Source: Promethearchaeota archaeon (GTDB lineage Archaea; Asgardarchaeota; Lokiarchaeia; Sigyniarchaeales; SOKP01). From it: a stretch of DNA of 38,344 bases. Shown here piece after piece: positions 4,527 to 37,057 of the stretch; the stretch's first letter is position 1, and each line of letters opens with the position of its first letter. A model generated the notes under the pieces. That model saw nothing but the letters and a program-made list of their open reading frames with translations, did no database searches and had not been told where the DNA came from. The stretch is taken from the NCBI GenBank assembly GCA_011364925.1, contig RDOA01000035.1, positions 1-38,344 of the forward strand, read 5' to 3'. The position numbers and the translations under genes are program-made.

Positions 4527-4677
4527 TTTATTATTATTACTCTTTTAAATTTTTAGGGGTTTAAATAAGCGTTGTATAAGCATAAATTGTTTACATATAA
4601 AAGTTGAATAATAAAAAATTAAGTTATAGCAAAATAATGCTCTAATTTCTTACATTTTACCAATAAAGTGAGAAAAT

Positions 4678-4707
4678 ATGCCAGGACATAATCAAATTTT
4701 TCCATAA
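4678..4707 (+). CDS. Micropeptide copy 1, MPGHNQIFP (9 aa; most divergent copy)
   Basis: ATG CCA GGA CAT AAT CAA ATT TTT CCA TAA. AAAGTGA lies 6 nt upstream; same length and M-P-G...hydrophobic-P-stop pattern as three other intergenic ORFs. Confidence 0.65.
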   Translation: MPGHNQIFP

Positions 4708-4751
4708 ATGATGATCGCAAGTTGACCATCATATATTTTCTTTTCTTTTTT
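4708..4751 (+). terminator. Hairpin plus T tract after micropeptide copy 1
   Basis: ATGATGATC (4708-4716) pairs with GACCATCAT (4724-4732), 8 of 9 pairs, followed by TTTTCTTTTCTTTTTT. Confidence 0.55.
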
Positions 4752-4881
4752 CATTGAACTTTATAAGCTGATATTTCTTAGTTCTTCCGATTTAGTTGAT
4801 GTTTAAATAAATAGGCGTTAAATTCTGCTAAAATATACAATTTAAAGAATAATTTTTTTATATATTGTCGATTTCCTTTAA

Positions 4882-6099
4882 ATGTTTAAAATGGTAAACA
4901 TTACCAAGTTTGGAGAAGAATATTTGCTTTTAGCACTTCGGATTGGTAAACATATTAAAGGGTATGTTGATTTTTATATCGGTCCAAGAATTTTACAAGA
5001 TCGTGTTAATATTGAGGGCCTAGCTTCACCAAACAGACTTTTAACAGACTGTAAGAATCTTCAAAACAATTTGTTCGTTCAAGGCTATGACAAAAACCGT
5101 GAAAGATATTTAGAAAAAATGTTAATTGCTATGTCAACAACAATAGAATCATTAATCCATACAAATATACCTATTGAGGAGCAATTCTTAAGGTTGTATG
5201 ATGTTGTTTTACACCCAGTTAACGAGGTTGAGTTGGAGAATTTAAAAGAAGAAGTAGACGAAGCATATAAAGGTCAAGGAAGTCTTGAAGAAAGATTCGA
5301 AAGGTTAAGGTTAAAACGAAAAGTTCCAAAAGACAAGGTCTTCACATTTTTTAAAAGAGCTCTTAATATAACAGAAAATCGAACTGAAGAATTGTTTATT
5401 GATCTATTACCTAAAAATCAACAAATTTCGTTAGAGCTTACAAAAGATGAGCGTGAAGACAATATAAAATGGACATGTTATGAATGGTATTTAGGCAAAT
5501 GTCGTAGTCGATTAGTGGTTAATCCGAAATTTGATTTGTACTGGACAAATTTATTAACATTGTGCGCTCATGAAGGATACCCAGGACATCATACAGAATT
5601 TTCTTTAAAAGAATTAAAACTGTATCACGACTTAAATCAATTCGAACATTCAGTTTTACTCATAAATTCTCCTAAATTAATAATAAGTGAAGGAATAGCG
5701 GATCTTGCCGTAAATGTGCTTTTTTCTTATCGAGATCAAGTAGAAATTGGATTGAACGAATTTAGTCTAGATTTATTTAATGATGATCCTCTTGAAGTTA
5801 TGATTGCACAATATCGGTTAAAGCATAAAGTTTCAAGTTTTTGGTACAATTTTGCTTATCATGCTCTCATTGATAATTACACCGATGAGGAATTAATTAG
5901 CTATGGTAAATATTACGAGATTTTTAGTGAGAATACCCTAAGAAATCAAATAAAAAGATTAAATGATCCTGTATATTCAGTAAATTCTTTTACATATAAC
6001 CTAGGGATGAATATTATAAAAAAGAGGTATGGAGAGTTCCCTTCAGCCAAAAATTTTCGAACTCTATTGATTAATCCAATATTACCATCTGACTTGTAA
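4882..6099 (+). CDS. DUF885-like HExxH zinc metallopeptidase (short form, no obvious signal peptide)
   Basis: AHEGYPGHH motif, downstream SEGIA (third-ligand Glu) and C-terminal TYNLG motif, matching the DUF885 pattern. Confidence 0.75.
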   Translation: MFKMVNITKFGEEYLLLALRIGKHIKGYVDFYIGPRILQDRVNIEGLASPNRLLTDCKNLQNNLFVQGYDKNRERYLEKMLIAMSTTIESLIHTNIPIEEQFLRLYDVVLHPVNEVELENLKEEVDEAYKGQGSLEERFERLRLKRKVPKDKVFTFFKRALNITENRTEELFIDLLPKNQQISLELTKDEREDNIKWTCYEWYLGKCRSRLVVNPKFDLYWTNLLTLCAHEGYPGHHTEFSLKELKLYHDLNQFEHSVLLINSPKLIISEGIADLAVNVLFSYRDQVEIGLNEFSLDLFNDDPLEVMIAQYRLKHKVSSFWYNFAYHALIDNYTDEELISYGKYYEIFSENTLRNQIKRLNDPVYSVNSFTYNLGMNIIKKRYGEFPSAKNFRTLLINPILPSDL

Positions 6100-6306
6100 T
6101 AGATATATCAAAATGCTAATTTCAGTTTTACCACTGTTTTGCCAAACTTATATTTCATTTTCATTGATCTCATACTATTTTTTCGTATTTTAAATAATTA
6201 ATTTAAATTATAAAATTGAGTGAAGAAAAAATAGGGAAGTAAAATCGAAAATCGTATAAATTAATTAGATCTCTTCATAGTTTTAAAATCTAAAGGAGTG
6301 ATTAAA

Positions 6307-6336
6307 TTGCCTGGTGACGATGGTACATTACCATAA
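6307..6336 (+). CDS. Micropeptide copy 2, MPGDDGTLP (9 aa, TTG start)
   Basis: TTG CCT GGT GAC GAT GGT ACA TTA CCA TAA. AAAGGAGTGA lies 5 nt upstream; TATA-like GTATAAAT about 50 nt upstream. Confidence 0.75.
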   Translation: MPGDDGTLP

Positions 6337-6339
6337 TTC

Positions 6340-6403
6340 GGTGTTATAAGAGTGATTTAGATTGACACTCTTATTTATACGCCTCTTATTTTTCATTTTT
6401 TTT
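6340..6403 (+). terminator. Hairpin plus T tract after micropeptide copy 2
   Basis: Perfect 9-bp stem ATAAGAGTG (6346-6354)/CACTCTTAT (6366-6374), outer GGTGT/ACGCC, then a T tract. Confidence 0.65.
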
Positions 6404-6542
6404 ATAAAAAGTCATAATCATTAATTTCCAACTATTTCTAGGAGTTTAAATATTGAATTTGATACATATGATGAGTGTAGAAAGAATATAATACTTCTAT
6501 TCTATATTCAGTTAGTTTCAAGATTTAAAAAGAGTGATAAAG

Positions 6543-6572
6543 ATGCCTGGTGATACGGGTACTATACCTTAA
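6543..6572 (+). CDS. Micropeptide copy 3, MPGDTGTIP (9 aa)
   Basis: ATG CCT GGT GAT ACG GGT ACT ATA CCT TAA. AGAGTGA lies 5 nt upstream; BRE/TATA-like GAAAGAATATAATA about 55 nt upstream. Confidence 0.78.
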   Translation: MPGDTGTIP

Positions 6573-6581
6573 ATTAGCACC

Positions 6582-6644
6582 GCTTAGTAGAGCAGTTCAC
6601 GTGAATGCTCATTTTAAGCTTATTCTTTACTTTTTTCTTTTTTT
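6582..6644 (+). terminator. Hairpin plus T tract after micropeptide copy 3
   Basis: GAGCA (6590-6594)/TGCTC (6606-6610) enclosing palindrome TTCACGTGAA, outer GCTTA/TAAGC, then a T tract. It might also serve the convergent pantoate kinase gene. Confidence 0.6.
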
Positions 6645-6662
6645 ATAAGAAACAATATACTA

Positions 6663-7628
6663 TTACGACTTTACATTAAACTTGATAGTCTGGTTATCTT
6701 TAATTTTTAGATCAAATGTCTTAATTTCAGGCTTGTATGTGTTATAGACTTCAAATACTTTCTTTTCCTTTCCCTTTTTACAGAATACATAAACAGAGCG
6801 ACCTAACTGATTCATACTAGCACCTATAATATCCAGTTTGTATAATTCAATTAACAAATCCTCAATTTTATCCAAATGCAAAATTTCTAATATTTGTGTA
6901 TCTTGTACAAACTTTTTTGACACTTTAATAAAATTCTTGTAATTAGGTTTTAATAATAAACTATTCAAAGCAAATTTACCTGCCTGTTTTATCTTTGAAC
7001 TGAGGTATTCATCTGATAATATCGATTTGGTTTTTATTGGTCCAAAAGAACCACAAATAACTAAGAGATCCTCTGGACTCTTTAACCGTTCCTGCTTACA
7101 AGGATAACCAGGTTCCTTCAAAACACATAAACCACCTCCTAATTGCCCACAAACTGTCCCTAAACCTGTCTTATTCACAACCTCAGCAATATGAGCAATC
7201 CTTCCACATTCTAAATTCGTTAACTTTAAGTTCAATAATTTATTCAGTCCAAAAATCGTTCCTAATGCACCTGAACCACTAGCGCCATACCCACAACCAA
7301 CGGGAAGGTCAAAAAGGTGTTCTATTTTTACATTTATCGGGTGATCTATCAGCTTATTAACATAATTGAATATAAAATAAGTTGTCTCTGCTTTCTTATC
7401 CAATTTTTCTTCGTTGATATAAATAGTACACTGACTTTCCTCGCCCATTTCAAGTTTTTCATAGGATACTGCTGTTGTTCCTACTCCACTTACGTTAAAT
7501 CCAGCACCTCGAGAGCCGATCTTTTCCGGATTTGTAATAGGAACCCCATTTTCTTTATCTACGATTTCAAAAAAACCCGAAATGCGATGGGGAACTTCAA
7601 CGATAATTTTATTCTTACTGTTTACCAT
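6663..7628 (-). CDS. Pantoate kinase (GHMP kinase family), archaeal CoA pathway
   Basis: PHRISGFF, GSRGAG, LPVGCGYGASGSGAL, AHIAEV..KTGLG and ASMNQLG motifs. Confidence 0.88.
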   Translation of the reverse strand: MVNSKNKIIVEVPHRISGFFEIVDKENGVPITNPEKIGSRGAGFNVSGVGTTAVSYEKLEMGEESQCTIYINEEKLDKKAETTYFIFNYVNKLIDHPINVKIEHLFDLPVGCGYGASGSGALGTIFGLNKLLNLKLTNLECGRIAHIAEVVNKTGLGTVCGQLGGGLCVLKEPGYPCKQERLKSPEDLLVICGSFGPIKTKSILSDEYLSSKIKQAGKFALNSLLLKPNYKNFIKVSKKFVQDTQILEILHLDKIEDLLIELYKLDIIGASMNQLGRSVYVFCKKGKEKKVFEVYNTYKPEIKTFDLKIKDNQTIKFNVKS

Positions 7629-7701
7629 ATCCCGTAAAAATTTACACCATGCAATTTAATTATATGTATAATTAAAAAATAAAAGTCAATTATAGTTTAT
7701 T

Positions 7702-8409
7702 ATGACTAAGAATATTGTGATCAAGTTTGGGGGCTCTCTTCTCTTTTCTGAGGGGGGAATAATAAATTCTCAAAAAATCACTGAATTTTGCAATACTATT
7801 AAACATAAGAATGATTACAACTCAATTGTAATTGTATGTGGAGGGGGAACTATAGCTCGACAATATATTAGAGCAATTAGAGACCTTACTGGCAACGAAG
7901 TATTGTGTGATTTGGTAGGAATTGAAATATCTCGCGTAAACTCAAGATTATTTATTGCTGAAATGAAGGGATTAGCGTATCCTCAAGTTCCGACATCATT
8001 CGAAGAACTCTCACTTGCACTTGGAACACATAAAATAACAATAATGGGAGGTTTACAGCCGGGACAATCAACTACATCAGTAGCTATGACCGTTGCAGAT
8101 TATTTAAAAGCAGAAAAATTAGTTATTCTTACAGATGTCGACGGTATATACGATAAAGATCCAGATCTTCATAAAGATGCGAAATTAATGGAGACAATCT
8201 CGTACGATTCCTTACAAAAATTAATCTTAGACTCATCAGCAGATACGCAAGCTTCTGCTGGAGAATATCGAATTTTCGACGCAGTATCTTTACAAATTTT
8301 AAAGAGAAGTAGAATTAAAGTAATTGTAATGTCGGGAAAAAACCTTTCTCAATTCCAAAAATTATGGAATAACGAAAAACAGTTTATTGGCACGACAATA
8401 TCAAAATAA
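7702..8409 (+). CDS. pyrH: Uridylate kinase (archaeal type)
   Basis: VIKFGGS, CGGGTIARQYI, MGGLQPGQSTT and TDVDGIYDKDP motifs. Confidence 0.93.
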   Translation: MTKNIVIKFGGSLLFSEGGIINSQKITEFCNTIKHKNDYNSIVIVCGGGTIARQYIRAIRDLTGNEVLCDLVGIEISRVNSRLFIAEMKGLAYPQVPTSFEELSLALGTHKITIMGGLQPGQSTTSVAMTVADYLKAEKLVILTDVDGIYDKDPDLHKDAKLMETISYDSLQKLILDSSADTQASAGEYRIFDAVSLQILKRSRIKVIVMSGKNLSQFQKLWNNEKQFIGTTISK

Positions 8410-8487
8410 GTTTTTAAATAATAAATTATTAAAATTTGCTACAATTTACTAGCATAGTTGAAAACTTCATAAATAAGAGAAAAAAGC

Positions 8488-8721
8488 ATGTCTCAATCTA
8501 CATGGAAAGATCAAATCAAGAAAAAATGGGGACCGCATAGTCATTGTCCAATCTGCGGAAAAGCTATGCCAATGGACAAACAATTTTGTAGTCAAAATTG
8601 CCGAGATAATTACTACGCAAGCCAAAAAAAACAGAAGAAAAAAAGTAGAATTCAAATGTTAGTTATGGTTGGCATGATGGCTGTTTTAATGGTGTTTCTG
8701 TTATTTTCTTCTGGATTTTAA
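8488..8721 (+). CDS. DUF2116-like Zn-ribbon membrane protein
   Basis: PHSHCPICGKAMP....FCSQNC, a basic stretch and a C-terminal hydrophobic helix. Confidence 0.85.
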   Translation: MSQSTWKDQIKKKWGPHSHCPICGKAMPMDKQFCSQNCRDNYYASQKKQKKKSRIQMLVMVGMMAVLMVFLLFSSGF

Positions 8722-8814
8722 TGTTGAACTAACTATTTATAATTTTGTAACTGTAAAACATAAAAAACAAAATATTAAAAGTTAAATTAGAGTCAAAAAA
8801 TTTTAAAATACTTA

Positions 8815-8973
8815 GCAGGGATAACCAAGTTGGTCAACGGTGCCGGACTTTTGTGAGAAAAATCTCGCAACACGGATTCAAGATCAATATTCAATTTATC
8901 CGTTGATTGACGGAGTTTCTGATGGGATATCCGGTGAGGTAGCTCTACGTGGGTTCAAATCCCACTCCCTGTA
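8815..8973 (+). tRNA. tRNA-Leu(CAA) with two introns: about 8849-8877 (position 32/33) and 8883-8928 (37/38)
   Basis: Acceptor GCAGGGA/TCCCTGT with A73, anticodon stem CCGGA/TCCGG, long variable arm, T arm GTGGG-TTCAAAT-CCCAC. The loop CTCAAGA is reconstituted through micro-exon TCAAG (8878-8882); intron TGGG (8923-8926) pairs with CTCA as a BHB central helix. Confidence 0.85.
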
Positions 8974-9344
8974 TCGTTTGTTTTACCATTTTGTGATATT
9001 TCATTTAATATTTCTTTTAAAAACGAAATTAGGGGTTTAATAATCTCTTGATCGTTACTTATTGACTTTAAAAAGAGCAACAATAATACGGGGGCGTTGA
9101 AAAAAGAAGATAATTTTTCAACGATTATATTGCTTAAAATTCTCTGTTGTACTCCAAATAATTGATGCGTTGCCGCTGATACTTTTACATTTTCAATTGT
9201 AGGAGGGATTCCTAAAGTCACATTCCCAATACCCATACTTTCCTGGTCAGAAATAAGAACAAGATAACTTTTATGTAATCTAAAAATTGAAACATAAATA
9301 TTTGTTTTATCTAGCTGCTTCGATCTCTCAATAAGCGACTTCAT
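8955..9344 (-). CDS. Hypothetical protein, probable proteasome assembly chaperone PAC3/PAC4-like fold
   Basis: Pattern IYVSIFRLHKSYLVLISD....IGNVTLGIP...LFG..ILSNIIVEKLS..FNAPVLLLL resembles PAC4-family beta-beta-beta-alpha proteins; by eye only. Confidence 0.5.
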   Translation of the reverse strand: MKSLIERSKQLDKTNIYVSIFRLHKSYLVLISDQESMGIGNVTLGIPPTIENVKVSAATHQLFGVQQRILSNIIVEKLSSFFNAPVLLLLFLKSISNDQEIIKPLISFLKEILNEISQNGKTNDTGSGI

Positions 9345-9375
9345 TTTTAGTATTATTATTTTTGAAATTTATAAT

Positions 9376-10185
9376 TTAGAGCTTGATATTTACTTCTTTT
9401 AAAGCCTCGTTTACTCCATAATTCTCATGAACGATAAGATACAACGCTTTTACAACTTTCATAGGATTCTCTGCTTGAAATACGTTCCTCCCGTAAGCGA
9501 CTCCTGCACCACCAACATCAATAGATTGTTTTGTAATTTCTAAAAGATCTTTAATCCCAGCTTTAGCTCCTCCTGCAATAATAACTGGGACCATACACCC
9601 ATCAACTACTTCTTTAAAAGAATCGGGATCTCCGGTCCAATTTGTTTTTACAATATCAGCACCGAGTTCTGCAGCAACTCTCGCAGCAATTTTAACGACT
9701 TGAACATCATGTTCGTCTTCGATATTTTCTCCTCGGGGATACATCATAGCTAAAAGGGGTATTCCAAATTCTCGGCAATCTCTCGAAACTTGACCTAAAG
9801 TTTCCAACATTTCTGCGTCAGTTTTTGTGCCTATGTTTACATGTAAAGAGACACCATCTGCACCAAATTTTACGGCTTCCACAACATCGTTAACTAATAC
9901 TTTATAATTGGAATCAGGACTTAGAGAAGTTGACCCCGATAAATGGAGAATCAAACCAATATCTGGACCATATCCTCTGTGAGCATAAAGAGGAATTCCT
10001 ACATGACCTAAAACTGCGTTTGCTCCGCCTAAAGCAACTTTATTAACCATTTCACCTAAATCTCGATCAAGCCCTTTAATTGGTCCCTCAGTCAAACCGT
10101 GATCCATAGGAATTATGATAGTTCTTTTTGTTTCTCGGTTAAAAATCCTCTCTAATCTAATTCTTTTACCAATATAACCAGATAT
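9376..10185 (-). CDS. DhnA-type class I aldolase, probably 2-amino-3,7-dideoxy-D-threo-hept-6-ulosonate synthase (AroA'); N-terminus extended beyond the ORF track start
   Basis: PMDHG, GLILHLSGSTSLSPD, AMMYPRG, AELGADIVKT, IAGG and AYGRNVFQ motifs. The frame continues upstream as IGKRIRLERIFNRETKRTIIIP; the start codon is uncertain (ATA at 10185 proposed). Confidence 0.85.
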   Translation of the reverse strand: MSGYIGKRIRLERIFNRETKRTIIIPMDHGLTEGPIKGLDRDLGEMVNKVALGGANAVLGHVGIPLYAHRGYGPDIGLILHLSGSTSLSPDSNYKVLVNDVVEAVKFGADGVSLHVNIGTKTDAEMLETLGQVSRDCREFGIPLLAMMYPRGENIEDEHDVQVVKIAARVAAELGADIVKTNWTGDPDSFKEVVDGCMVPVIIAGGAKAGIKDLLEITKQSIDVGGAGVAYGRNVFQAENPMKVVKALYLIVHENYGVNEALKEVNIKL

Positions 10186-10298
10186 CGCTATGCCACCTTT
10201 AAAGCAATGTTTTTAATATGTATTTTAACTTTAGAATAATATAATATAATAAGTAGCACATTTTTAACTCTTTTAAAATTTTTGAAACTCCAAGTTTT

Positions 10299-10529
10299 AT
10301 GCCGGAATCAAGCGAAAGTTGTCCCAGTAACGATGATGAAGAAATAAACAGTTGCTACAACTGTGGTTTTAAAATTATTAATGTAAATCAAAAAGTATGT
10401 CAGAATTGCAATACGATTCTAAATCCAAACGATCTTAAGTGGAAATCTAGTTTTATATCATTTCTCATTTTATTATGCCTGATACCAATTCTTATAGCAA
10501 TAATTTCTGTCTTGACCTTGAACGAATAA
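10299..10529 (+). CDS. Small zinc-ribbon membrane protein
   Basis: CYNC-x10-CQNC followed by a C-terminal transmembrane segment. Confidence 0.7.
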   Translation: MPESSESCPSNDDEEINSCYNCGFKIINVNQKVCQNCNTILNPNDLKWKSSFISFLILLCLIPILIAIISVLTLNE

Positions 10530-10567
10530 TGAAATAATTTAGTTTTCTGATAGATTAATAACGTAAA

Positions 10568-11116
10568 CTATTTAGGAGAAAATACTACATCAGAAATACG
10601 CTGTCTGCGAATATCAAAATCATGATCAAGGTGAAGTGTAATGCAATGTTGATCCTTTTTTTGAGGATTTTTATGAACATAACTTATAGGGACAACAGGT
10701 AATTCAGATTTCAAAACAAAGGTCTTAGGGATAGGAACTGCAATAATTTCCCTACACCGCTCGCAATTTACTAACACAACTTTTGTTTTATCCGATTCAA
10801 GCTTTTTTATTTGTGTAATCAAATCAGCAGAGAGTCCAGGAGATTTAATAGTAATTTTATCCTTTCTTTTTGGTGATTCGGGAACTATTGGGATTTCTAA
10901 TTCTAAATCTTCTTGGATTGAGAAATCTCGTGTTTTGTCCTTAGGTATAGCTTTTTTTACATGAGTATCATGATTTTTAGAGGAAGTTTTATCTGAATGT
11001 TTCTTATCCTCTTCAGTTTTTGAACCTTTTTGAGTTGTTTTACCGGGATTCTCCACTATTCTCACTAATGCTGGTTGTTTAACTCCATATAAATTAAGCT
11101 TAATTACTGCTAACAT
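10568..11116 (-). CDS. Hypothetical protein with low-complexity N-terminus and C-terminal Cys/His (probable Zn) domain
   Basis: 182-aa ORF; CERC...YVH...HCITLHLD at the C-terminus. Start uncertain. Confidence 0.65.
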   Translation of the reverse strand: MLAVIKLNLYGVKQPALVRIVENPGKTTQKGSKTEEDKKHSDKTSSKNHDTHVKKAIPKDKTRDFSIQEDLELEIPIVPESPKRKDKITIKSPGLSADLITQIKKLESDKTKVVLVNCERCREIIAVPIPKTFVLKSELPVVPISYVHKNPQKKDQHCITLHLDHDFDIRRQRISDVVFSPK

Positions 11117-11133
11117 ACAAACTAGGAATAATG

Positions 11134-11739
11134 TTATACTCCAAATATTTGCCGTAGCTCAGCATATATTTTTGAAAGCTCCGAAATAATTGATGTATTA
11201 TTTTGCTGCAGATAATAATTGATGTATCCCGATAATCCCTCACTATCCTTAATCCATTCTAAGAAAGATTCTATTTCGCCTTTTAATTGAGGATCGATAT
11301 TAGCGCTAACAGCAGTGTTTGGACCGCTTGCAGTCCCTAACTGAGATCCAGGTTCCATATAGTTTTGTTTTGAGCTTAATTGTGAGAGTGCTCTTGCAGT
11401 GTCCATTGTGGCTCCCATAGGTTCACCGTCGGGCTCGAGATAAATGAGTAACTTATGCTCATCATCTTTTGCTCCCAAAATGTGACCTTCGCCTCGGATT
11501 GAAGTAGCTACTAACCTTTCTGAAGTACACTGAAGTACGGAGTATTTTACGCCCGAAATTATGATAAATTGAGCGTTCATGCTATTCCAGGTGGATATAA
11601 CTTTACCAACATCAGCACTAATGTCCCAGTTATCTGTTGAGTAAATGATTGTATCTCGTCCTTGAACTACAGCAGCTGCAATAATGCTGGGATCTTTTTG
11701 TAATAAATTGTAAATTACTGTGGCTGGATCAGCGGGCAT
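11134..11739 (-). CDS. Asgard profilin-domain protein with C-terminal extension
   Basis: IIYSTDNWDIS, ISGVKYSVLQCTSERLVATSIRGEGHI and LLIYLEPDG match my recollection of Loki profilin motifs (QTENWNIS, QGIKYMIVENTEERKIGTNITGKGH). Confidence 0.82.
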   Translation of the reverse strand: MPADPATVIYNLLQKDPSIIAAAVVQGRDTIIYSTDNWDISADVGKVISTWNSMNAQFIIISGVKYSVLQCTSERLVATSIRGEGHILGAKDDEHKLLIYLEPDGEPMGATMDTARALSQLSSKQNYMEPGSQLGTASGPNTAVSANIDPQLKGEIESFLEWIKDSEGLSGYINYYLQQNNTSIISELSKIYAELRQIFGV

Positions 11740-11842
11740 TTTTTTTTCAATTTTTTAGATTTAATTATCCTAGTGCAAAAATAATAATAATATTAGTATA
11801 AATATAATTATAAAATTTGTATTAAAAATTTTGGTTAATTAA

Positions 11843-12331
11843 TCAATCTTCCTTTGAGGTCTTAATGTTTATCCTTCCAAACTTAGGTTTATATTGAAAT
11901 TCATTGTTTTCAGAGTTAAATTTCTTCTGCTCATCTTTCTCATTGAAAACCAATCTGTTGTTTGTGAAAAGAAAATGCTCTAAATCATCTTTTTTTCTTT
12001 CCTTAATGTGATTTTGTAGCGATGTTTCCGTTTTAAACATCTTTCCACACACGGGACAACTTAAATAAGGATTTTCTAACAGACCTTTCGGTGGTTTAAC
12101 CACAGTTGGAAATTTTTTTTTCCTGTTGAATAAACCTTGTTCTTTCCGACAATAATGCCTCTGTAATTTTCCATATGGTGGATACTCAAAAAAGATTTTA
12201 CTCCCGTGAGTACACTCCCAATAAAGTACATCTGCTCCACATTTTCTGCAAGATGTCTTAAATGATCGTAAATAACAGTGTTTTCCGTGACTTTTATAAT
12301 TATGTCGCATTATATAATTAGAAATTTCCAT
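11843..12331 (-). CDS. Zinc-finger protein (N-terminal Cys/His cluster plus C2H2-like finger)
   Basis: CRKC...CTH...HYC and CPVCGKMF....LQNHI motifs. Confidence 0.7.
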   Translation of the reverse strand: MEISNYIMRHNYKSHGKHCYLRSFKTSCRKCGADVLYWECTHGSKIFFEYPPYGKLQRHYCRKEQGLFNRKKKFPTVVKPPKGLLENPYLSCPVCGKMFKTETSLQNHIKERKKDDLEHFLFTNNRLVFNEKDEQKKFNSENNEFQYKPKFGRINIKTSKED

Positions 12332-12478
12332 TTTATTAAAACATTTTGGTGAAACATCGTATACTAAAAATTGCTAATGTGTTTTTTATTAACTGATAAA
12401 TCCATAAAACGCAAACATTTAAAAGTATGAGTTTAATTATAGAATTTAAAGATTTGAAATATTTATGGGTATAAGTAA

Positions 12479-13408
12479 TTGGATCTTTCAATGCCTCAAA
12501 ACAATTTAAATTTATGCCCAGAATGTGGGAATACTAATTTAGTGGCTGACGACGCTCGCGGTGAAATTATATGCAATTTATGTGGACTTGTTTTAAGCCA
12601 AAAAATAATTGATTCTGGTCCAGAATGGAGAGCTTTTTCCTCAGAAGAGGCTAGTAAAAAAGTTAGAGTAGGAGCACCAACAACTTTAACTCTTCACGAT
12701 AAAGGATTAAGTACGATGATAGGTTGGAAAAATAAAGACGCATTTGGCAAAAGTATAAGTCCGAAAATGAAAGCTGAAGTGTATCGTTTGAGGAAATGGC
12801 ATGTAAGAACTAGAACCAATAAATCAATAGATCGCAATTTAGCTTATGCGATGAACGAATTGGATCGTTTTTCTTCGCAGCTTAATTTATCGAAAGAATT
12901 AAAGGAATCAGCAGCTCATATCTATAGAAAAATGGCGCATAAGAACTTAATAAGAGGAAGATCTATTGAGGCAATGCTTATCGCATCAATTTATTTATCC
13001 TGCAGACTAAACAACATCCCTAAAACTCTTGATGATTTTATTGAATTTGCACTAGTTGATAAAAAGAAGATAGCACGTTGCTATAGACTAATTTTAAACG
13101 AATTAAAAGTAAATATTCAAGTTTCATCCCCAATTAATTTCATTCCTCGATTTTGCGCAGAATTAAACCTCTCGGGGAAAACTCAAAATCGAGCTGCCGA
13201 ATTATTAAAATTGGCAAAAAAGTATCATATCACTGCGGGAAAAGCCCCCACTGGTTTAGCTGGAGCTGCTTTGTATGTTGCTGCAATCCAAGAGGGAGAG
13301 CGACGTACTCAGAAAGAGATATCACTAGCAGCAGGAGTTACGGAAGCTACAATAAGAAACAGGTATAAAGAGATTATTAATCACTTACGATTTGAGCTTA
13401 ACCCTTAA
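12479..13408 (+). CDS. tfb: Transcription initiation factor IIB
   Basis: CPECG..CNLCG Zn ribbon, GPEWRAF B-reader, LHDKGLST, LIRGRS and AGVTEATIRNRYKE cyclin repeats. Confidence 0.97.
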   Translation: MDLSMPQNNLNLCPECGNTNLVADDARGEIICNLCGLVLSQKIIDSGPEWRAFSSEEASKKVRVGAPTTLTLHDKGLSTMIGWKNKDAFGKSISPKMKAEVYRLRKWHVRTRTNKSIDRNLAYAMNELDRFSSQLNLSKELKESAAHIYRKMAHKNLIRGRSIEAMLIASIYLSCRLNNIPKTLDDFIEFALVDKKKIARCYRLILNELKVNIQVSSPINFIPRFCAELNLSGKTQNRAAELLKLAKKYHITAGKAPTGLAGAALYVAAIQEGERRTQKEISLAAGVTEATIRNRYKEIINHLRFELNP

Positions 13409-13447
13409 AATATTCATAGAAGGGAATCGCCTTTTTTATAGGATATG

Positions 13448-13597
13448 TTATCGGACTTTTATCCTTTTTATTACATCAGGGCGTTTCTTATATAGGATGC
13501 GGAATCCACAGTGAGAGCATTTAATACCAGGTAGTGCGTTTAATTCAGTTTTAGAAACTTCTTTCCCACAGCTTTTTCTAGCACATACATATTTCAT
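13448..13597 (-). CDS. rpoP: DNA-directed RNA polymerase subunit Rpo12/P (49 aa; below the ORF-track cutoff)
   Basis: Manual translation MKYVCARKSCGKEVSKTELNALPGIKCSHCGFRILYKKRPDVIKRIKVR; CxxCGxRILYKxR is diagnostic. Confidence 0.93.
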   Translation of the reverse strand: MKYVCARKSCGKEVSKTELNALPGIKCSHCGFRILYKKRPDVIKRIKVR

Positions 13598-13697
13598 ATG
13601 TGTAGAAATTAACCAAAGTTAAAATATTTTTCGTATTTAATTTCAATGGTTAGAAGAATTTCGAAAAAGGAAAAGAAACTAAGAAAATTAACTTAAA

Positions 13698-14513
13698 CTA
13701 GATATATAAGGACTTTCTCTTATCTTCAGTATCGATAAATTCAAAAGTATTGAGATCTTTTTCGAGTTGATCTCTTTTATCCTGAAGATTTTTGGTAATA
13801 TCATCGATATTATCTAAGGAATATTTCTTTTTAATTGGTAAAGTGAAAGATTTCTTAAGCATTTCTAATAAAGTTATTGAGGCTTTTAAATCGGTAACAT
13901 CCTCGTTTACCATAGCAATATTATCTGTTTCAGCTAAAAGAACAATTCCATCTAAATTAAACCTCGCTTTTGCTAACGTAGGGATTAAACCATTAGCACC
14001 TATAATTACTCCCTTCTGAATTTTTTCACAGTTATTTTTCTTTAGAAAATCGGTTAATAATTCTCGATTCGTCGAACTTACGTAAATTTTGGGAACTTTT
14101 ACATTTAGTTTTCGACTGTTTACTGGATACGCCCCTAAAGCTACTATCAGGTTTATTTTACTTTGGTAAATAATCTCTGCAAGAAAATTCGATATTTTAT
14201 ATATGCCTTTAGGTGTTAAACTTTGCGCATCGGCTGTGATTAAAAAGATATCTCTCTGTCTATTTGGATCTTTCCAGTATAATATCTCTGCTTTTGGAGC
14301 TGATAATAAACTATCATCAACTATAGCTCCCGCGGGGTAATCATCAAAAATAAAGTCCATAAAATTTTTCGCATCTAGTTGCCCAATTAAAGAATCTATT
14401 GCGAATTTTCCGACATCAGCAATTCCAGGCATCCCCAAAATGCAAATAGGGTTTACTATTTCACCTTCTTTAAAATCAAAGCGTTTAATTACCCTTATCC
14501 CAGACTCAGTCAC
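13698..14513 (-). CDS. PAC2-family proteasome assembly chaperone-like protein
   Basis: ILGMPGIADVGKFA, ITADAQ, IVALGAY, IIGANGLI and GIVLLAET motifs. Confidence 0.85.
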   Translation of the reverse strand: MTESGIRVIKRFDFKEGEIVNPICILGMPGIADVGKFAIDSLIGQLDAKNFMDFIFDDYPAGAIVDDSLLSAPKAEILYWKDPNRQRDIFLITADAQSLTPKGIYKISNFLAEIIYQSKINLIVALGAYPVNSRKLNVKVPKIYVSSTNRELLTDFLKKNNCEKIQKGVIIGANGLIPTLAKARFNLDGIVLLAETDNIAMVNEDVTDLKASITLLEMLKKSFTLPIKKKYSLDNIDDITKNLQDKRDQLEKDLNTFEFIDTEDKRKSLYI

Positions 14514-14714
14514 ATTTTTTCCCTTATGTCAATATTGTTGATAGTATTAGAGTCATAATTTTGGCTTTAAAATCAATGTATTATCCTAATAGACACATAA
14601 TTTATCGTAAAAGTAATATAAACATAATATCACAAAAAATTTATTTTTCAAAAAATCATTAAATATATCGGATTTTGTATCGATTATTTACAATACATTT
14701 TACATTTTTTAGAA

Positions 14715-15308
14715 TTGATTGGACTTCACTATAGTTGTATGAAATGCGGCACTTGTTGCCATGAAATTGAATTCAAAAAGAGAATTCCTCTATACCCTGA
14801 AGAAGCAGACAAATTAATAGAAATCGCAAAAGAACGGGGCATAGCCTTTAAGATCGTAGAAGATTTGGTTTTCCCTGATGTATTAAATAAAAAGATCCTT
14901 GTTGTAACTTACAAAATCAGACTGGACAATGAAACTCATGGTTGTCCCTTTTATGACCCAGAAAAAGGCTGTACAGTTCACGAAGTAAAACCATTAGCAT
15001 GCAAAGCATATCCCCTTGCTTTAAAACAAGTAGATGCTTTTAACTTTCAAATAAGCATTGATCCATTATGTAACTTTGTTGATGGTAATTACGATTTAAT
15101 AAAGGAAGCGGATTTTGCCAAAATAATAGAAATATTTAGGAATGAATACCCTAACGCCCAGGAACATCTTAAGAAAAACAAAAATCTAATGTTAAAAATT
15201 AAAGAACTCGAGTATGAGAAGAAAATAAAAATTTCGAGAGAAATATCGCTAGAGGAATTCAATAAATATCTAAAAGAATGGGACAGAGAAGAAATTACAA
15301 CAGAATAA
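14715..15308 (+). CDS. YkgJ-family cysteine-cluster (CxxCxxCC) protein
   Basis: CMKCGTCC, CPFYD...CTVHEVKPLACKAYP. Confidence 0.85.
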   Translation: MIGLHYSCMKCGTCCHEIEFKKRIPLYPEEADKLIEIAKERGIAFKIVEDLVFPDVLNKKILVVTYKIRLDNETHGCPFYDPEKGCTVHEVKPLACKAYPLALKQVDAFNFQISIDPLCNFVDGNYDLIKEADFAKIIEIFRNEYPNAQEHLKKNKNLMLKIKELEYEKKIKISREISLEEFNKYLKEWDREEITTE

Positions 15309-15313
15309 AACTG

Positions 15314-15958
15314 GTGATAACAGTAAGAAAATTCATATCTCTACTTTCTGGAGGTTTAGATAGCCCAATTGCAGCGTATGTGATGATGCAAAGAGGGTTT
15401 ACACCAATTTTTCTCTCGTTGCTAACTTCAGACGATTACGAACAATCAATGAAAAATAAAGTTCTAAACATTGTAAAAATTCTATCCGGATTTACCCAGA
15501 ATGAACTGAAAATATATTTTATTAACCACGATAATAACTTGGAAGGATTTAAACAGGTATGCGACCGGAAATTGACCTGTATTTTATGTAAAAGATTAAT
15601 GATTAGGATTGCTCAACAAATTGGAAGATTAGAAGGCACTAATATAATAGTTACTGGAGACATTCTGGGAGAACAAGCCAGCCAAACTTTGGACAATTTA
15701 TACTCATACCAAAATGTAATCCAAGATTTCATCCTTATCCGACCTTTAATAGGATGGGACAAACAGGAAGTAATTGATCTTAATAAAAAAATAGGGTTGT
15801 ATAAAATTTCTTCAGAAGCTTCAGCGGGATGTAAGTATAATCCTCAATACCCCGAAACTCACGCGAAATTATCTGAAGTTGAGGATTCAGAAAAAAAAGT
15901 TAATATTCCAAATCTAGTGAAAAAATCTGTTAATGATGCAGAAGTATTAAAATTTTAG
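15314..15958 (+). CDS. ThiI-like PP-loop sulfurtransferase catalytic domain lacking THUMP
   Basis: LLSGGLDSPIA, CILCKRLM, TGDILGEQASQTLDNL and RPLIGWDKQE motifs. GTG at 15314 is preferred over ATG 15278, which overlaps the upstream gene. Confidence 0.85.
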   Translation: MITVRKFISLLSGGLDSPIAAYVMMQRGFTPIFLSLLTSDDYEQSMKNKVLNIVKILSGFTQNELKIYFINHDNNLEGFKQVCDRKLTCILCKRLMIRIAQQIGRLEGTNIIVTGDILGEQASQTLDNLYSYQNVIQDFILIRPLIGWDKQEVIDLNKKIGLYKISSEASAGCKYNPQYPETHAKLSEVEDSEKKVNIPNLVKKSVNDAEVLKF

Positions 15959-16339
15959 GTTTAAATCTTCAACCAGAGTATCAAAATCCTCATTTTCTAA
16001 CTCCAACTCATTAAAATCATTTAAACCTTCACAAATCGCTTGAGCAACTAGGTGTTTACAGAAATTTCTAGCTCGCGCTATTACAACATTCTTATAAAAA
16101 TCCTGGCAAGAGCAATATAATCTTGGATATATCATGTGTTCACAATTTTTTCCTAAAGCTACCCAAACAACGCGATTCGAAGGTTTGTAATAATATTTCG
16201 TAATCCCTTTTTTTATTACTTCTAAAACTTTTTCAACTTTCCCTGGAAATATTGAATCTATAAGGCTAATTAACTCGTCATCTATAGCACTTTTGTTTTT
16301 AGCCTTTAAATAAATATCAAATAATAAATCTTTAGACAT
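15947..16339 (-). CDS. SWIM zinc-finger protein
   Basis: YCSCQDF-x11-CKHLVA SWIM motif. Confidence 0.85.
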   Translation of the reverse strand: MSKDLLFDIYLKAKNKSAIDDELISLIDSIFPGKVEKVLEVIKKGITKYYYKPSNRVVWVALGKNCEHMIYPRLYCSCQDFYKNVVIARARNFCKHLVAQAICEGLNDFNELELENEDFDTLVEDLNLKF

Positions 16340-16388
16340 TTGATTATCATATAGTAATTATAATAGATAAATAAAAAGGATCTAAAGT

Positions 16389-17693
16389 TTGTACAATATT
16401 TTATATTTCCCTACGAGATATTATCCTGCAATATCTGGAGCAGAATTCTACATCCAAAGCATTGCCGAGATTTTTTACTTTAAATACAAATACGAGGTAA
16501 ACATCTTTACTTCCAATGCAATTGATTTTAAAGGATTAAGGGAATCGAAAGGAAAAGTTATAAACATCGGAGAAAAATACTACAATTGCGTAAATAATTT
16601 AAAAATTATGCGTTTTCCTGTTAACTATAACATTTCTTTAGATGACAAACTAAACTATGTAAAAAAAATTCCGTCTTACAAGGATTTAGGATTATCTGAC
16701 GAGTGTCTAACAGAATATTTAAGGAATGGGCCTTACTTGGAAACCTTACTTGAAGACCTAAAACGCTTCACTAACATATCAATTGATCTGGTTCACTCAT
16801 GTTTTTACCCCTATTTTAACATAATCATGGCTTTAATGATAGGAAAACTTGCCAATAAACCAGCAATTTGTACCCCCTTCTTCCATTTTTCAAATCCTAG
16901 ATACCTCAACAAGTTCTATTTCGAACCGTTACAAAAATTTGATAAGATTGTTGCTTGCACTCATCTTGAAAAGAAGATACTAGTAGAACAACTTAATATT
17001 CCTGAAGAAAAAATACAAGTTATTTCTATGGGTGTTGACTACAAGAAATTTACTTCACCTGTGAAACAGAAAAATAAAAGTTTCAATTTCAAACAAAAAT
17101 ATTTTAAGTCAAACGAAAAAAATTATAAAATGGTACTTTTCTGCGGGTATAAAAATTACGAGAAAGGGGCAATTTCGATATTGAAAACTATTCCTTACAT
17201 CTTAAAAAAACATAAAAAAGTCTATTTTGTTTTTATTGGACCTTCTACACTTGCGTTTAATAGAGAATTAGCTAAAATTCAAAGAGATCTTGACATTCGC
17301 GTAATAAATTTAACCCCAGACAATTTAACTGGGTATTATGATGCAAAAAAAATAGCAGCTTTTAACGAAACTGATGTTTTCTTGATGCCTAGTCGAAGCG
17401 ACGCTTACGGCATTGCATTTTTAGAAGCTTGGGCTTCAAGCAAACCGGTTATTGGTGCTAACATAGGGGCAACACCAGAGGTTATTAGAGAAAACATTGA
17501 CGGGTTACTTGTTAGATTTGACGATCCTATTGACATCGCTGATAAGATTGTAACGCTACTAAAAAAAAAGCGCTTAAGGAGAACTTTAGGTTCAAATGGG
17601 AAAGAAAAAGTTGAAAAAAATCTCTCTTGGGATGAGATTGCAAAAAAAACAAACAAAATGTACCAACAATTAATATATAAACAAGAGGATTAA
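16389..17693 (+). CDS. Glycosyltransferase family 4
   Basis: YYPAISGAE, ISMGVD, EKG, DVFLMPSRSDAYGIAFLEAWASSKPVI motifs. Confidence 0.92.
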   Translation: MYNILYFPTRYYPAISGAEFYIQSIAEIFYFKYKYEVNIFTSNAIDFKGLRESKGKVINIGEKYYNCVNNLKIMRFPVNYNISLDDKLNYVKKIPSYKDLGLSDECLTEYLRNGPYLETLLEDLKRFTNISIDLVHSCFYPYFNIIMALMIGKLANKPAICTPFFHFSNPRYLNKFYFEPLQKFDKIVACTHLEKKILVEQLNIPEEKIQVISMGVDYKKFTSPVKQKNKSFNFKQKYFKSNEKNYKMVLFCGYKNYEKGAISILKTIPYILKKHKKVYFVFIGPSTLAFNRELAKIQRDLDIRVINLTPDNLTGYYDAKKIAAFNETDVFLMPSRSDAYGIAFLEAWASSKPVIGANIGATPEVIRENIDGLLVRFDDPIDIADKIVTLLKKKRLRRTLGSNGKEKVEKNLSWDEIAKKTNKMYQQLIYKQED

Positions 17694-17694
17694 A

Positions 17695-18915
17695 ATGAAA
17701 ACGATATCGGGAAATCCTTATTTAACCAAAAAGGATGGAGCTTTGCTCATAGATAATATTTCACTCAATGAACTTCTGAAAACTTATTCTACTCCTTTTA
17801 TGATATTTTTAGAAAATAGAATTAGAAACAACATTACCACCTTTCTTAAAGTTTTTGAATCTGCTTTTAATAACGCTCAATGTTTTTACTCTTTCAAGGC
17901 TAATTTCCTTCCGGAGATTTGTAACATTGTCCAATCTGAAGGGTTAGGTGCCGAATTAATTGGATTACCAGAATTGAAGTTAGCCCTAAAACTGAATTTT
18001 CCACCAGAGAAGATAATTGTCGGCGGACCTTATTTACCTCAACAACTTATTGAAAAATGCGTTAAAGAAGAAGTCAAAGAAATAGTCGTGTACAATCTGA
18101 ACGATTTAGTTAGAATAAATAGAATCGCTAAAAAACACAATCATATCCAAAAGATTTGCTTAAGAATTATGAATCAAAAATACGGAGCTAAATTAGGCAT
18201 TTACCTAAACCAAATAAATGTGAACAAGTTAAAAGAAATAACTAAAGAATGCGAACACCTTCGAATTACTACACTATTATCTCACTATTCTTCTCAAATG
18301 AATAATTCTGAGTTATTCACTAAAAATCTGAAAGTCATTTTAGACAATGCAAAAATTTTGTTCAATGCTGGTATTAAAGTAGAAAACATAAACTTGGGTG
18401 GAGGATTTCCCGAAGCTGCAATAATGCCAGAGAATCAGTTGAGAGAACTTGCTAAGAAGATAAAATCGCTTATAAATAATTTTGAGTTTAATTTCAATAG
18501 CATATATTTTGAACCCGGGCGTTATTTAGTTGGAGATGCTGGGTTGCTTATTGCTAAAATTATTAATATTACTGAAGATAGATGGATTTTCCTAAATGTA
18601 GGTAATCATATTTGCCCCAAATTTGCAAAATCTTCTATGAGGTTTTATAACGCTTCTAGAATTGAGGAACCACATAAATTTAAAACATCAATAGCGGGTA
18701 TTATTCCAACTGATCAAGATGTGTTAGCCAAAGATTACTTCTTTACCAACGACTTAAAGGAAGGAGATTTAGTTGTTATAACAAATGTAGGTGCCTATAA
18801 CCTAACTTTTTCTAACCGATTTCCTTATCTCCTTCCCAACGTAATACTTGTTAAAGATATAACTGCTATAAATATTTTCAATCCTTCTGTAAATCATGAT
18901 TTTTCTATCAATTAA
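17695..18915 (+). CDS. Group IV PLP-dependent decarboxylase (LysA-like), substrate uncertain
   Basis: YSFKAN (PLP Lys), HYSSQ, NLGGGF, FEPGRYLV and VGAY motifs; 1 nt from the GT4 gene. Confidence 0.85.
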   Translation: MKTISGNPYLTKKDGALLIDNISLNELLKTYSTPFMIFLENRIRNNITTFLKVFESAFNNAQCFYSFKANFLPEICNIVQSEGLGAELIGLPELKLALKLNFPPEKIIVGGPYLPQQLIEKCVKEEVKEIVVYNLNDLVRINRIAKKHNHIQKICLRIMNQKYGAKLGIYLNQINVNKLKEITKECEHLRITTLLSHYSSQMNNSELFTKNLKVILDNAKILFNAGIKVENINLGGGFPEAAIMPENQLRELAKKIKSLINNFEFNFNSIYFEPGRYLVGDAGLLIAKIINITEDRWIFLNVGNHICPKFAKSSMRFYNASRIEEPHKFKTSIAGIIPTDQDVLAKDYFFTNDLKEGDLVVITNVGAYNLTFSNRFPYLLPNVILVKDITAINIFNPSVNHDFSIN

Positions 18916-19033
18916 AATCCAAAGAAGATAGAATATAGCTATCGTATAAATTCTCTCTCTTTTTTAGGACTTTAAATAGGTTTTTTGAGTTAATATATTG
19001 ATTCAAAAATTTATATATACAGGAGTGAGATAA

Positions 19034-19063
19034 ATGCCTGGTGAACTAGGAACATTTCCTTAA
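19034..19063 (+). CDS. Micropeptide copy 4, MPGELGTFP (9 aa)
   Basis: ATG CCT GGT GAA CTA GGA ACA TTT CCT TAA. AGGAGTGA lies 5 nt upstream; TTTAAATA about 60 nt upstream; T-rich tract at about 19087-19102. Confidence 0.78.
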   Translation: MPGELGTFP

Positions 19064-35434: not shown

Positions 35435-37057
35435 ATGGATGTAAACAAAGGTTTTGAAGATTTAGTTAAAAGAGGGATTGAAGAATATTTCAAACGTAAT
35501 CCAAGAATTGCTGTTCAATTTGGTAAAGAAGAATATGAAAGAATAGTAGAATCAGGATCGAAAGAACATATAGAGGAGAATCTAAAATGGTTTGGTCAGT
35601 GGATTAATGAGCTTAAGCAATTAGAAGTTGAAAAATTAAATTTCGAAAATAAAATTTCACTAAAAGCTCTAGAATACTATCACAATATCAATCTATTTAA
35701 CCATGAGGAGTTTCTTTTATGGAAAAGAGATCCTAATGGATTAGCATACTTTCAAGAGATTACATACCTTTTATTCCAGCGAAAGGGGCCAACAATAGAT
35801 TTAGCGGAAATTGTCATCATTCATATAAAAAAATTACCTAAATATTTAGAGGAATTCCAGTCTCGTTTTGATAAAACTCCGATTCCAATTGTATGGAGAG
35901 ATTTAGCTTTAGAAACAATTGAAACTACTCCTAAAATTTTAAAAGCTGTTGCTAAGGCATGTACCGAAACATCAGAAGTAAGCCCTACTCTTAAAAACGA
36001 ACTTCTTGAAGCCCTTAAAGAAGTTGAATCAGTTATCAAAAATCATGTAAAATGGATAAATAATCTACCCGTGGACACCAGCGAATTTGCCTGGGCTTTA
36101 GGACCTGAAAAATTCGATAAACTACTAAGTATACGGAAACTTCCTTGGGATCGAAAGACACTTCTATCAAAAGGGAATAGACTATTCAGCTTAGGATTTA
36201 AAAAAATTAAACGAATTCTTAAAGAACTCTATCCTGGTAAAACACTTAGCGAGGGAATTAAAGCATTTTTCGAAGAAGACTTAATCCCATCTTTTAAAGA
36301 AGTTCTCGAATACACTCAAAGTGAAGCAAAACGAGCAAAAAAATTCATAGAAAGCCATGATATTGCAACAATACCACTGGATAATTTGAAAATTATTGAA
36401 ACACCGCCCCATCTTGTACCAATCCTCCCAGCTGCTGCTTATGAACCAGCTCCCTATTTTAATAAAGAACAACCGGGAATCTTTATGATTAGTCCTACGC
36501 AAAAAGAATTTCAATCGTATACATATATTCCTCTTTGGATGGTCCATGAAGCTTATCCGGGACATCATTTGGATATCGCTAACAATAACGCTTTTGCTCC
36601 TCTCGTCAGACTGTTAGGGATATCTATGGAAACCGCCGAAGGATGGGCTATTTATTGTGAGGAAATGATGTTACAAGAAGGATTTTATAAAAATCACAAA
36701 AAAACCCAGCAATTAATTTCAGGAACTCAAGTAAGTGAAGCGATGACAATCATTTTGGATATCCAATTACACTGTAGGCAACGATCTATTTCAGATGCTA
36801 CTGAAACTTTAATGAATATATTATCAGTTAGTGAGGTTGCAGCTAAAGCGTCGATCGTTGATCATACTCGTGCTCCTGGCTATTCATCATCTTATCTTAC
36901 TGGAAAGCTCCTAATTGATGAATTACGTCAGGATCTAGAAGAAAAAATGGGAGACAAATTCACATTAAAATTCTTTCACGATACGATTCTTAGAAGTGGA
37001 GATTTACCATATTTCTTGTTGAAAGAGTATTTCGAAGAAAAAATAAAAAATCTATAA
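35435..37057 (+). CDS. DUF885 family HExxH metallopeptidase-like protein
   Basis: HEAYPGHHL, AEGWAIYCE, DIQLH, PGY..SYLTG and LKFFHD.IL..G.LP motifs. Confidence 0.9.
   Translation: MDVNKGFEDLVKRGIEEYFKRNPRIAVQFGKEEYERIVESGSKEHIEENLKWFGQWINELKQLEVEKLNFENKISLKALEYYHNINLFNHEEFLLWKRDPNGLAYFQEITYLLFQRKGPTIDLAEIVIIHIKKLPKYLEEFQSRFDKTPIPIVWRDLALETIETTPKILKAVAKACTETSEVSPTLKNELLEALKEVESVIKNHVKWINNLPVDTSEFAWALGPEKFDKLLSIRKLPWDRKTLLSKGNRLFSLGFKKIKRILKELYPGKTLSEGIKAFFEEDLIPSFKEVLEYTQSEAKRAKKFIESHDIATIPLDNLKIIETPPHLVPILPAAAYEPAPYFNKEQPGIFMISPTQKEFQSYTYIPLWMVHEAYPGHHLDIANNNAFAPLVRLLGISMETAEGWAIYCEEMMLQEGFYKNHKKTQQLISGTQVSEAMTIILDIQLHCRQRSISDATETLMNILSVSEVAAKASIVDHTRAPGYSSSYLTGKLLIDELRQDLEEKMGDKFTLKFFHDTILRSGDLPYFLLKEYFEEKIKNL

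Follow-up and report, generated by a model that had tools for sequence, protein, structure and literature searches.

Nine-codon genes for proline-bounded peptides in a Lokiarchaeia genome: probable members of a peptide signal or modified-peptide system

We analyzed a stretch of 38,344 nucleotides (nt), hereafter the window, from a Promethearchaeota archaeon of the Lokiarchaeia (contig RDOA01000035.1), and in particular four nine-codon open reading frames (ORFs) whose products begin with Met-Pro-Gly and end with Pro. The comparisons described below identify the MPG...P ORFs as a genuine peptide-coding gene family that is invisible to annotation. Judged by sequence and gene context, they are probably leaderless members of a peptide signal or RiPP-type system (RiPP, a peptide made by the ribosome and modified after translation) of one Promethearchaeota family, in which a large protein of about 1200 amino acids (aa) would sense the peptide and a zincin would act on its C-terminal Pro. 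The peptide units are tied either to one zincin clade or to the ~1200-aa cytoplasmic protein with a major facilitator superfamily (MFS) transporter or a signal-peptide-like leader, often together with a known RiPP enzyme. An earlier note on this DNA had proposed stand-alone genes for signaling or modified peptides. Signaling or modified-peptide precursor is still the best role, whereas the genes do not stand alone but belong to zincin or large-protein cassettes.

A family of nine-codon peptide genes

Direct re-reading of the sequence found the four ORFs where the earlier note had placed them, all on the + strand, 30 nt long and ending in Pro-TAA: MPGHNQIFP (4678-4707), MPGDDGTLP (6307-6336), MPGDTGTIP (6543-6572) and MPGELGTFP (19034-19063). 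As had also been claimed, the start codon is TTG in the 6307 copy and ATG in the other three, and AGTGA lies 6, 5, 5 and 5 nt 5' of the respective starts (at 4667-4671 in the first copy), extended to GAGTGA in three copies. The 16S 3' end of this genome, on C86, reads GATCACCTCC, and its pairing with the AGTGA site is possible. No in-frame leader was found upstream of the four window ORFs.

The whole genome holds 11 such genes, one each on C42, C70 and C86 and four each on C44 and C49; with its kin included, 94 distinct peptide loci were collected. Among 1180 intergenic nine-codon ORFs of the genome, 11 carry Pro at both position 2 and the end, and every one of them reads MPG...P. Intergenic ORFs of 7, 8, 10 and 11 codons gave 0 of 4761 with this pair of prolines. 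Since all 11 Pro-bounded ORFs share the MPG...P form and the other lengths yielded none, the family is not a product of chance, and the enrichment above background expected of real genes is present. The strict peptide pattern occurred in 9 of 41 genomes, while the reversed-pattern control gave 0 matches. Outside the genus, the matches were mostly single and at chance level, those of G256, G246 and G281 being genuine by their gene context. Matches at 82 viral loci were single and without a neighboring cassette gene, and we attribute them to chance. One nine-codon ORF, MPGMCGCPP, is common to four IMG/VR contigs (L350, L356, L366 and L423), likewise with no cassette gene nearby, and is probably unrelated.

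We examined whether the peptide itself is under selection, as the earlier note had held. In-frame stops were observed at 3 of the 94 loci, compared with 29 expected by shuffling and a minimum of 15 in 2000 shuffles, and two of these three loci resemble chance matches in other contexts. Thus broken frames are rarer than expected across homologous loci. One stop-bearing copy (L078:1053-1082) has TGA at codon 6 with its ribosome site and hairpin intact and is probably a broken gene. The start-to-stop distance is fixed at 27 nt across the family, and the third positions of the Pro2, Gly3 and Pro9 codons show free four-fold variation. Residues 4-8, on the other hand, evolve near neutrality, with a ratio of non-synonymous to synonymous change (pN/pS) of about 0.9. 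Since the center is near neutral while stops are avoided, what these sequences show is selection for frame, length and ends but not for the peptide center; the earlier claim stands for the former and falls for the latter. The proposed conserved Gly6-Thr7 pair is not supported either, as the 4678 copy lacks it and position 6 is Gly in only 43 of 88 kin peptides; what is selected is the length, the Met-Pro start and the terminal Pro.

The size of the mature unit is suggested by two repeated-core precursors in kin (L283 and L310), which contain PHGGDGCP three times, and PHGGKGCP twice plus one variant, and which both adjoin a YcaO gene. Their P-x6-P core has the length of the window peptides minus Met. 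Because the repeats define this length, the likely unit is, as proposed previously, an octapeptide that lacks Met and is bounded by Pro on either side.

Each gene lies in a unit of about 150-200 nt that comprises a TATA box, a ribosome site, the nine codons and a U-tract. In all four window copies the TATA-like box TTTAAATA is located 63-118 nt 5' of the start, at 4560-4567 for the first unit (118 nt) and, from a promoter motif scan, at 6189-6196, 6445-6452 and 18971-18978 for the others, all on the + strand. An extended version of this promoter motif was found in 39 of 89 peptide promoters and in 2 of 1348 other upstream regions. Across the family, the ribosome site is present in 78 of 88 members and the U-tract in 88 of 94. 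Only the 6307 unit has a strong hairpin (6340-6405 with its U-tract; −15 kcal/mol, z −3.8); those of the other three are weak (z −1.0 to −1.7), including the hairpin and U-tract at 4708-4752 and the hairpin at 6582-6619, which is followed by a U-tract and then a convergent GHMP-kinase gene. The family median z is −2.7, and an Rfam search gave no match for the peptide units. These results agree with the claim that every copy has its own expression signals. They contradict the claim of unrelated flanks, since one promoter motif and one hairpin family are common to the units. The 6307 unit, flanks included, has its closest relative in the copy at C49:9753. Because the flanks are related, we conclude that whole units were duplicated.

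The zincin and the large protein beside the peptides

The first three peptide genes flank a + strand gene (4882-6099) for a 405-aa DUF885-like gluzincin, a candidate tailoring or turnover enzyme. A separate TATA-like box for this gene lies at 4802. The protein has neither a predicted signal peptide nor a membrane helix, and its zinc motif, HEGYPGHH at residues 230-237 with E270, is intact. The predicted structure (predicted local distance difference test score 95.6) matched DUF885 folds with Z 20-22, M32 carboxypeptidase with 14, MATCAP with 12.7 and ACE with 12.3, at 10-15% identity to the solved members. This fold, with HExxPGHH and a downstream Glu, places the protein among the DUF885/gluzincin enzymes. 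Its PF05960 score of 22 bits lies below the gathering cut-off of 32.4, indicating a related subfamily rather than a curated member, and sequence searches of PDB and NCBIfam gave no match. The window also contains a canonical DUF885 gene (35435-37057; 197 bits), alongside which no peptide gene was detected.

The association of this enzyme with the peptides extends well beyond the window. Within the genus, each of the 13 genomes whose zincins are at least 52% identical to it holds several peptide genes, while the remaining genomes have 0-1 pattern matches, and the same zincin-peptide pair occurs in a second genus (G256). Up to 10 zincin matches were found per genome, with about one enzyme per 1-3 peptides in each cassette. 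A tree of 158 homologues places the enzymes linked to peptides in one derived group (SH-like approximate likelihood ratio test support 92) that includes four unlinked entries. Clade A zincins (44 entries) have co-oriented nine-codon genes and clade B zincins (13 entries; 33-38% identity) have convergent peptides of 9-12 codons such as MPHTGGIVP, and nearly all members of both clades carry adjoining peptides. No peptides were found beside 16 basal Lokiarchaeia zincins or 79 bacterial and other ones; the bacterial homologues are surrounded by housekeeping genes. All 59 peptide-linked zincins have an intact zinc motif. A conserved 91-aa ORF without a Pfam match (L190:3843-4118; also at L092, L193, L196 and L200) lies directly 5' of several clade B enzymes. 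The peptide units were duplicated along with a zincin gene and are part of a larger cassette.

The fourth window gene (19034-19063) has no zincin and lies between a pyridoxal phosphate (PLP)-decarboxylase gene and ftsZ. The corresponding interval holds a zincin and two peptide genes in G008 and is an empty 115-nt gap in G234, suggesting that the 19034 copy likely lost its zincin. The decarboxylase gene forms a pair with a glycosyltransferase gene (16389-18915), and kin carry zincin, large-protein or peptide cassettes on either side of this pair (L031, L092, L190, L195, L200, L202, L280, L285 and L316), so that the pair may be either an insertion hot spot or a part of the pathway. The idea that all cassette sites fall in one chromosome region was unsupported in 400 kb of the complete genome G234.

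The second partner is the large protein. The peptide copy on C70 is located between an MFS gene and a divergent gene for a 1204-aa protein (C70:47914-51528). This protein is present in 117 of 134 genomes of the family and in 0 of 19 others in the order. Using a detector for Gly/Pro-rich peptide genes ending at or near Pro, we found an adjacent peptide gene at 50 of 81 large-protein loci, compared with 4 of 436 control genes, two of the four being true members of the family. Short leaderless peptides adjoin an MFS gene in 25 of 35 cases. The leader-bearing long forms have 36-42 codons, as in P0304 with MPGCSESGP at its end. Of 18 such forms, 2 adjoin an MFS gene and 16 lack it; L264, counted among the 18, is probably a miscalled short form. 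Among 21 long precursors, all with a basic N-region and a hydrophobic core, 13 carry a peptidase-I-like site, [AGS]-x-[AG], located 7-12 residues before the end. This is the pattern that export by two routes would give (Fisher P 3e-5, overstated by the relatedness of the genomes).

Genes for ThiF, methyltransferase, B12-radical-S-adenosylmethionine (SAM) and YcaO enzymes adjoin the peptides in other genera. The best non-E1 match of the ThiF neighbor is MccB (E 1.6e-18), and the group adenylated by ThiF enzymes is a C-terminal carboxylate (PMC12596934). The majority of ThiF-linked peptides have a terminal Pro, and several have Arg at position 2. A ThiF orthologue (E ≤ 1e-35) was found neither in this genome nor in 41 genomes of its genus, and no YcaO was found in this genome. 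In kin, the gene context combines a putative precursor with a tailoring enzyme, as in RiPP systems broadly defined, while in the window this assignment depends on the putative role of the zincin. At L236 (1415-1444; G274), a nine-codon peptide ending in Gly-Gly, as do ubiquitin and ThiS, has an MFS gene on one side and an interrupted ThiF gene on the other; a radical-SAM-like gene and the large protein are found further out.

Proposed peptide route and its alternatives

We propose that the nine-residue product is translated and loses its Met to give P-x6-P; M24-family peptidases are present in the genome, MetAP not being singled out among them. The short peptide would leave the cell through the MFS transporter and the long forms through Sec, and would return through an Opp-type importer, for which the genome encodes ten family-5 substrate-binding proteins. 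The returned peptide may then bind the ~1200-aa protein, which in this genome is encoded at C70:47914-51528 next to a peptide gene and an MFS gene of its own, and thereby alter gene expression. The variable peptide center would provide strain- or locus-specific signals, and the zincin and peptide units would have multiplied in this lineage.

The free C-terminal Pro is the most likely target of the zincin, since 63 of the 66 zincin-linked peptides end exactly there and the nearest characterized folds are C-terminal peptidases; the detector, however, demanded Pro in the last two positions. M32 enzymes stop at Pro, for which a literature search gave no support. Trimming of residues after Pro was set aside because the linked peptides almost never have such residues. 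A fifth, divergent zincin of this genome (L219; G000 C34, about 15080-16400) is followed by MPSGNIIPE, with Glu after Pro. Regarding what the enzyme does, tailoring such as cyclization or Pro removal is a serious possibility that falls short of an even chance. Turnover of the signal is less probable, and so, to the same degree, is inhibition or regulation of the zincin by its peptide; these three are not separable from sequence. It is improbable that enzyme and peptide make no direct contact.

Several observations speak against the proposed system. ThiF (16 genomes) and linked zincins (22 genomes) never co-occur, but this is weak evidence for an exchange of one for the other, as no more than 2.3 overlaps would be expected (P 0.07). 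Many short-peptide loci have no tailoring enzyme, and modification would therefore be optional. No peptide was detected at about 31 of the 81 large-protein loci, several with MFS among them. No zincin was ever found adjoining the large protein. Searches with the large protein against Pfam, PDB, PADLOC and, for its N-terminal 405 aa only, NCBIfam gave no match, and an hhalign profile test detected neither an internal repeat nor an N-terminal likeness to the zincin; Rgg-type tetratricopeptide repeat (TPR) proteins likewise escape sequence search. The regulator role is drawn from a weak Atlas lead to helix-turn-helix/AsnC proteins (0.81). The receptor role of the large protein is the weakest link of the proposal. 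Finally, all counts given here were made over related genomes, and their independence is overstated. A sub-clade of large-protein loci (L282, L287, L288, L289 and L291) has MFS and no detected peptide gene between, pointing either to divergent peptides or to receptors without a signal of their own.

The main alternative, which we regard as unlikely, is that the peptides are RiPP natural products rather than signals, that is, modified or cyclic antagonistic or metal-binding compounds exported by MFS or Sec, with the zincin serving as the tailoring or immunity enzyme that defines the class, and the large protein as a cluster regulator only. The known RiPP enzymes beside the peptides in kin fit this, as does the combination of short peptide, ThiF and MFS, a microcin C-like layout in which several ThiF-linked peptides also share Arg2 (PMC12596934), and a near-neutral center between fixed ends resembles a precursor library. 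However, many loci with peptide, MFS and large protein have no enzyme, and the most constant partner is the large protein, which is nearly universal in the family. Furthermore, the zincin count rises with the peptide count, which is not the pattern of one enzyme serving many precursors.

Somewhat less likely still is an intracellular inhibitor or antidote, in which the Pro-ended peptide plugs the neighboring zincin in a toxin-antitoxin or Rap-Phr-like manner and has no need to leave the cell. Such a role would suit the presence of roughly one enzyme for every 1-3 peptides in a cassette, the multiple zincins per genome and the ACE/M32-like fold, as Pro-ended peptides inhibit ACE (PDB titles). 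Enzymes and peptides also covary weakly (Mantel r 0.23, null maximum 0.19), but co-inheritance can explain this. The same peptide family has signal-peptide-like leaders or MFS in genomes without linked zincins, copies that lack a zincin, such as 19034, remain intact, and a PADLOC search was without match.

Pro-stop is a known ribosome stalling context, and with this ending the 4678 and 19034 genes lie 165-174 nt upstream of co-oriented genes, as cis-acting leader or arrest peptides controlling a downstream gene might. We nevertheless consider this very unlikely: the 6307 and 6543 genes, like many copies in kin, are followed by a convergent gene or by another peptide unit, clade B copies are convergent to a zincin gene, the window zincin has its own promoter element, and leader-bearing and repeated-core forms would make no sense in cis. 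Least likely of all is a non-coding RNA or mobile-element repeat with an incidental ORF, for although whole units duplicate with their flanks and the center has a pN/pS near 1, stop avoidance is strong, the length is fixed, the fixed codons vary at their third positions, Rfam gave no match and homologous cores occur behind signal-peptide-like leaders.

The peptide signal or RiPP-type system remains our preferred reading. A much bolder form of it, which we advance with considerable doubt, is a family-wide peptide communication of Lokiarchaeia whose receptor is not related to RRNPP proteins. In this form, a DUF885-type zinc peptidase would replace the ATP-dependent RiPP enzymes as C-terminal tailoring enzyme, for example as a metal-dependent macrocyclase, and would produce a peptide library that may reach ~18 Pro-capped octapeptides in one genome.

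Elsewhere in the window, an Rfam tRNA match spans 159 nt at 8815-8973 with a 71-position model, probably a tRNA with a long intron, and 11134-11739 encodes a profilin-like protein with a C-terminal extension.

Comparison with known systems

The logic of a tiny peptide, an exporter and a cytoplasmic partner is known from Firmicutes, while the core pairings seen here belong to no described family. In the searchable literature, whose coverage is incomplete, we found no papers on Asgard peptide signaling, on a DUF885 substrate or on a DUF885-type RiPP enzyme. If our reading is correct, this would be a first cell-to-cell peptide system for the Asgard archaea, which among prokaryotes are the nearest relatives of eukaryotes. 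The DUF885-like zincins, long orphans, would in addition gain named candidate substrates, and the 1200-aa protein, conserved throughout a family, would gain a ligand.

In fold and zinc motif, the product of 4882-6099 resembles DUF885 and the M32/ACE/MATCAP gluzincins. It differs from DUF885 in its length of about 400 aa, its score below the Pfam cut-off and its link to peptides, which the bacterial homologues lack. Very short leaderless precursors with ThiF and MFS in kin recall microcin C and the ThiF, YcaO and radical-SAM RiPPs (PMC12596934), and YcaO beside Cys-containing repeated cores recalls the YcaO RiPPs. Membership in the microcin C class fails, as none of the 66 zincin-linked peptides ends in Asn and the MccB-like ThiF orthologue, present beside related peptides in other genera, was found neither in this genome nor in 41 of the genus. 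Many copies converge on their neighbor or form tandem arrays, unlike attenuators and arrest leaders.

In RRNPPA cassettes, peptide genes lie downstream, cores are repeated and paralogues have multiplied (PMC9765709). As in Rap-Phr, PlcR-PapR, NprR-NprX, AimR-AimP and Rgg-SHP, the peptide gene here adjoins a partner in many paralogous cassettes, several peptide genes may accompany one partner, and there are repeated cores and propeptides that start with a signal-peptide-like leader and end in a short mature part. Unlike those systems, the putative signaling system described here has no detected TPR receptor, its partners being an unclassified large protein and a zincin with an intact active site that is not a TPR protein.

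The closest analogue is SIP/LCP-RopB of Firmicutes, in which an eight-residue leaderless signal is encoded by a 24-bp ORF (PMC10518010). The archaeal host, the Gly/Pro-rich polar peptides with a fixed terminal Pro, the ~1200-aa partner without a RopB or TPR match, the linked MFS and tailoring enzymes and the additional zincin-linked copies set the present family apart. In both, a small peptide ORF with a ribosome site lies beside a partner gene, the arrangement that also marks RRNPPA systems. The likeness extends to an ultra-small gene missed by gene callers, an eight-residue product without a secretion signal, and a candidate cytoplasmic receptor gene alongside, often in divergent orientation.

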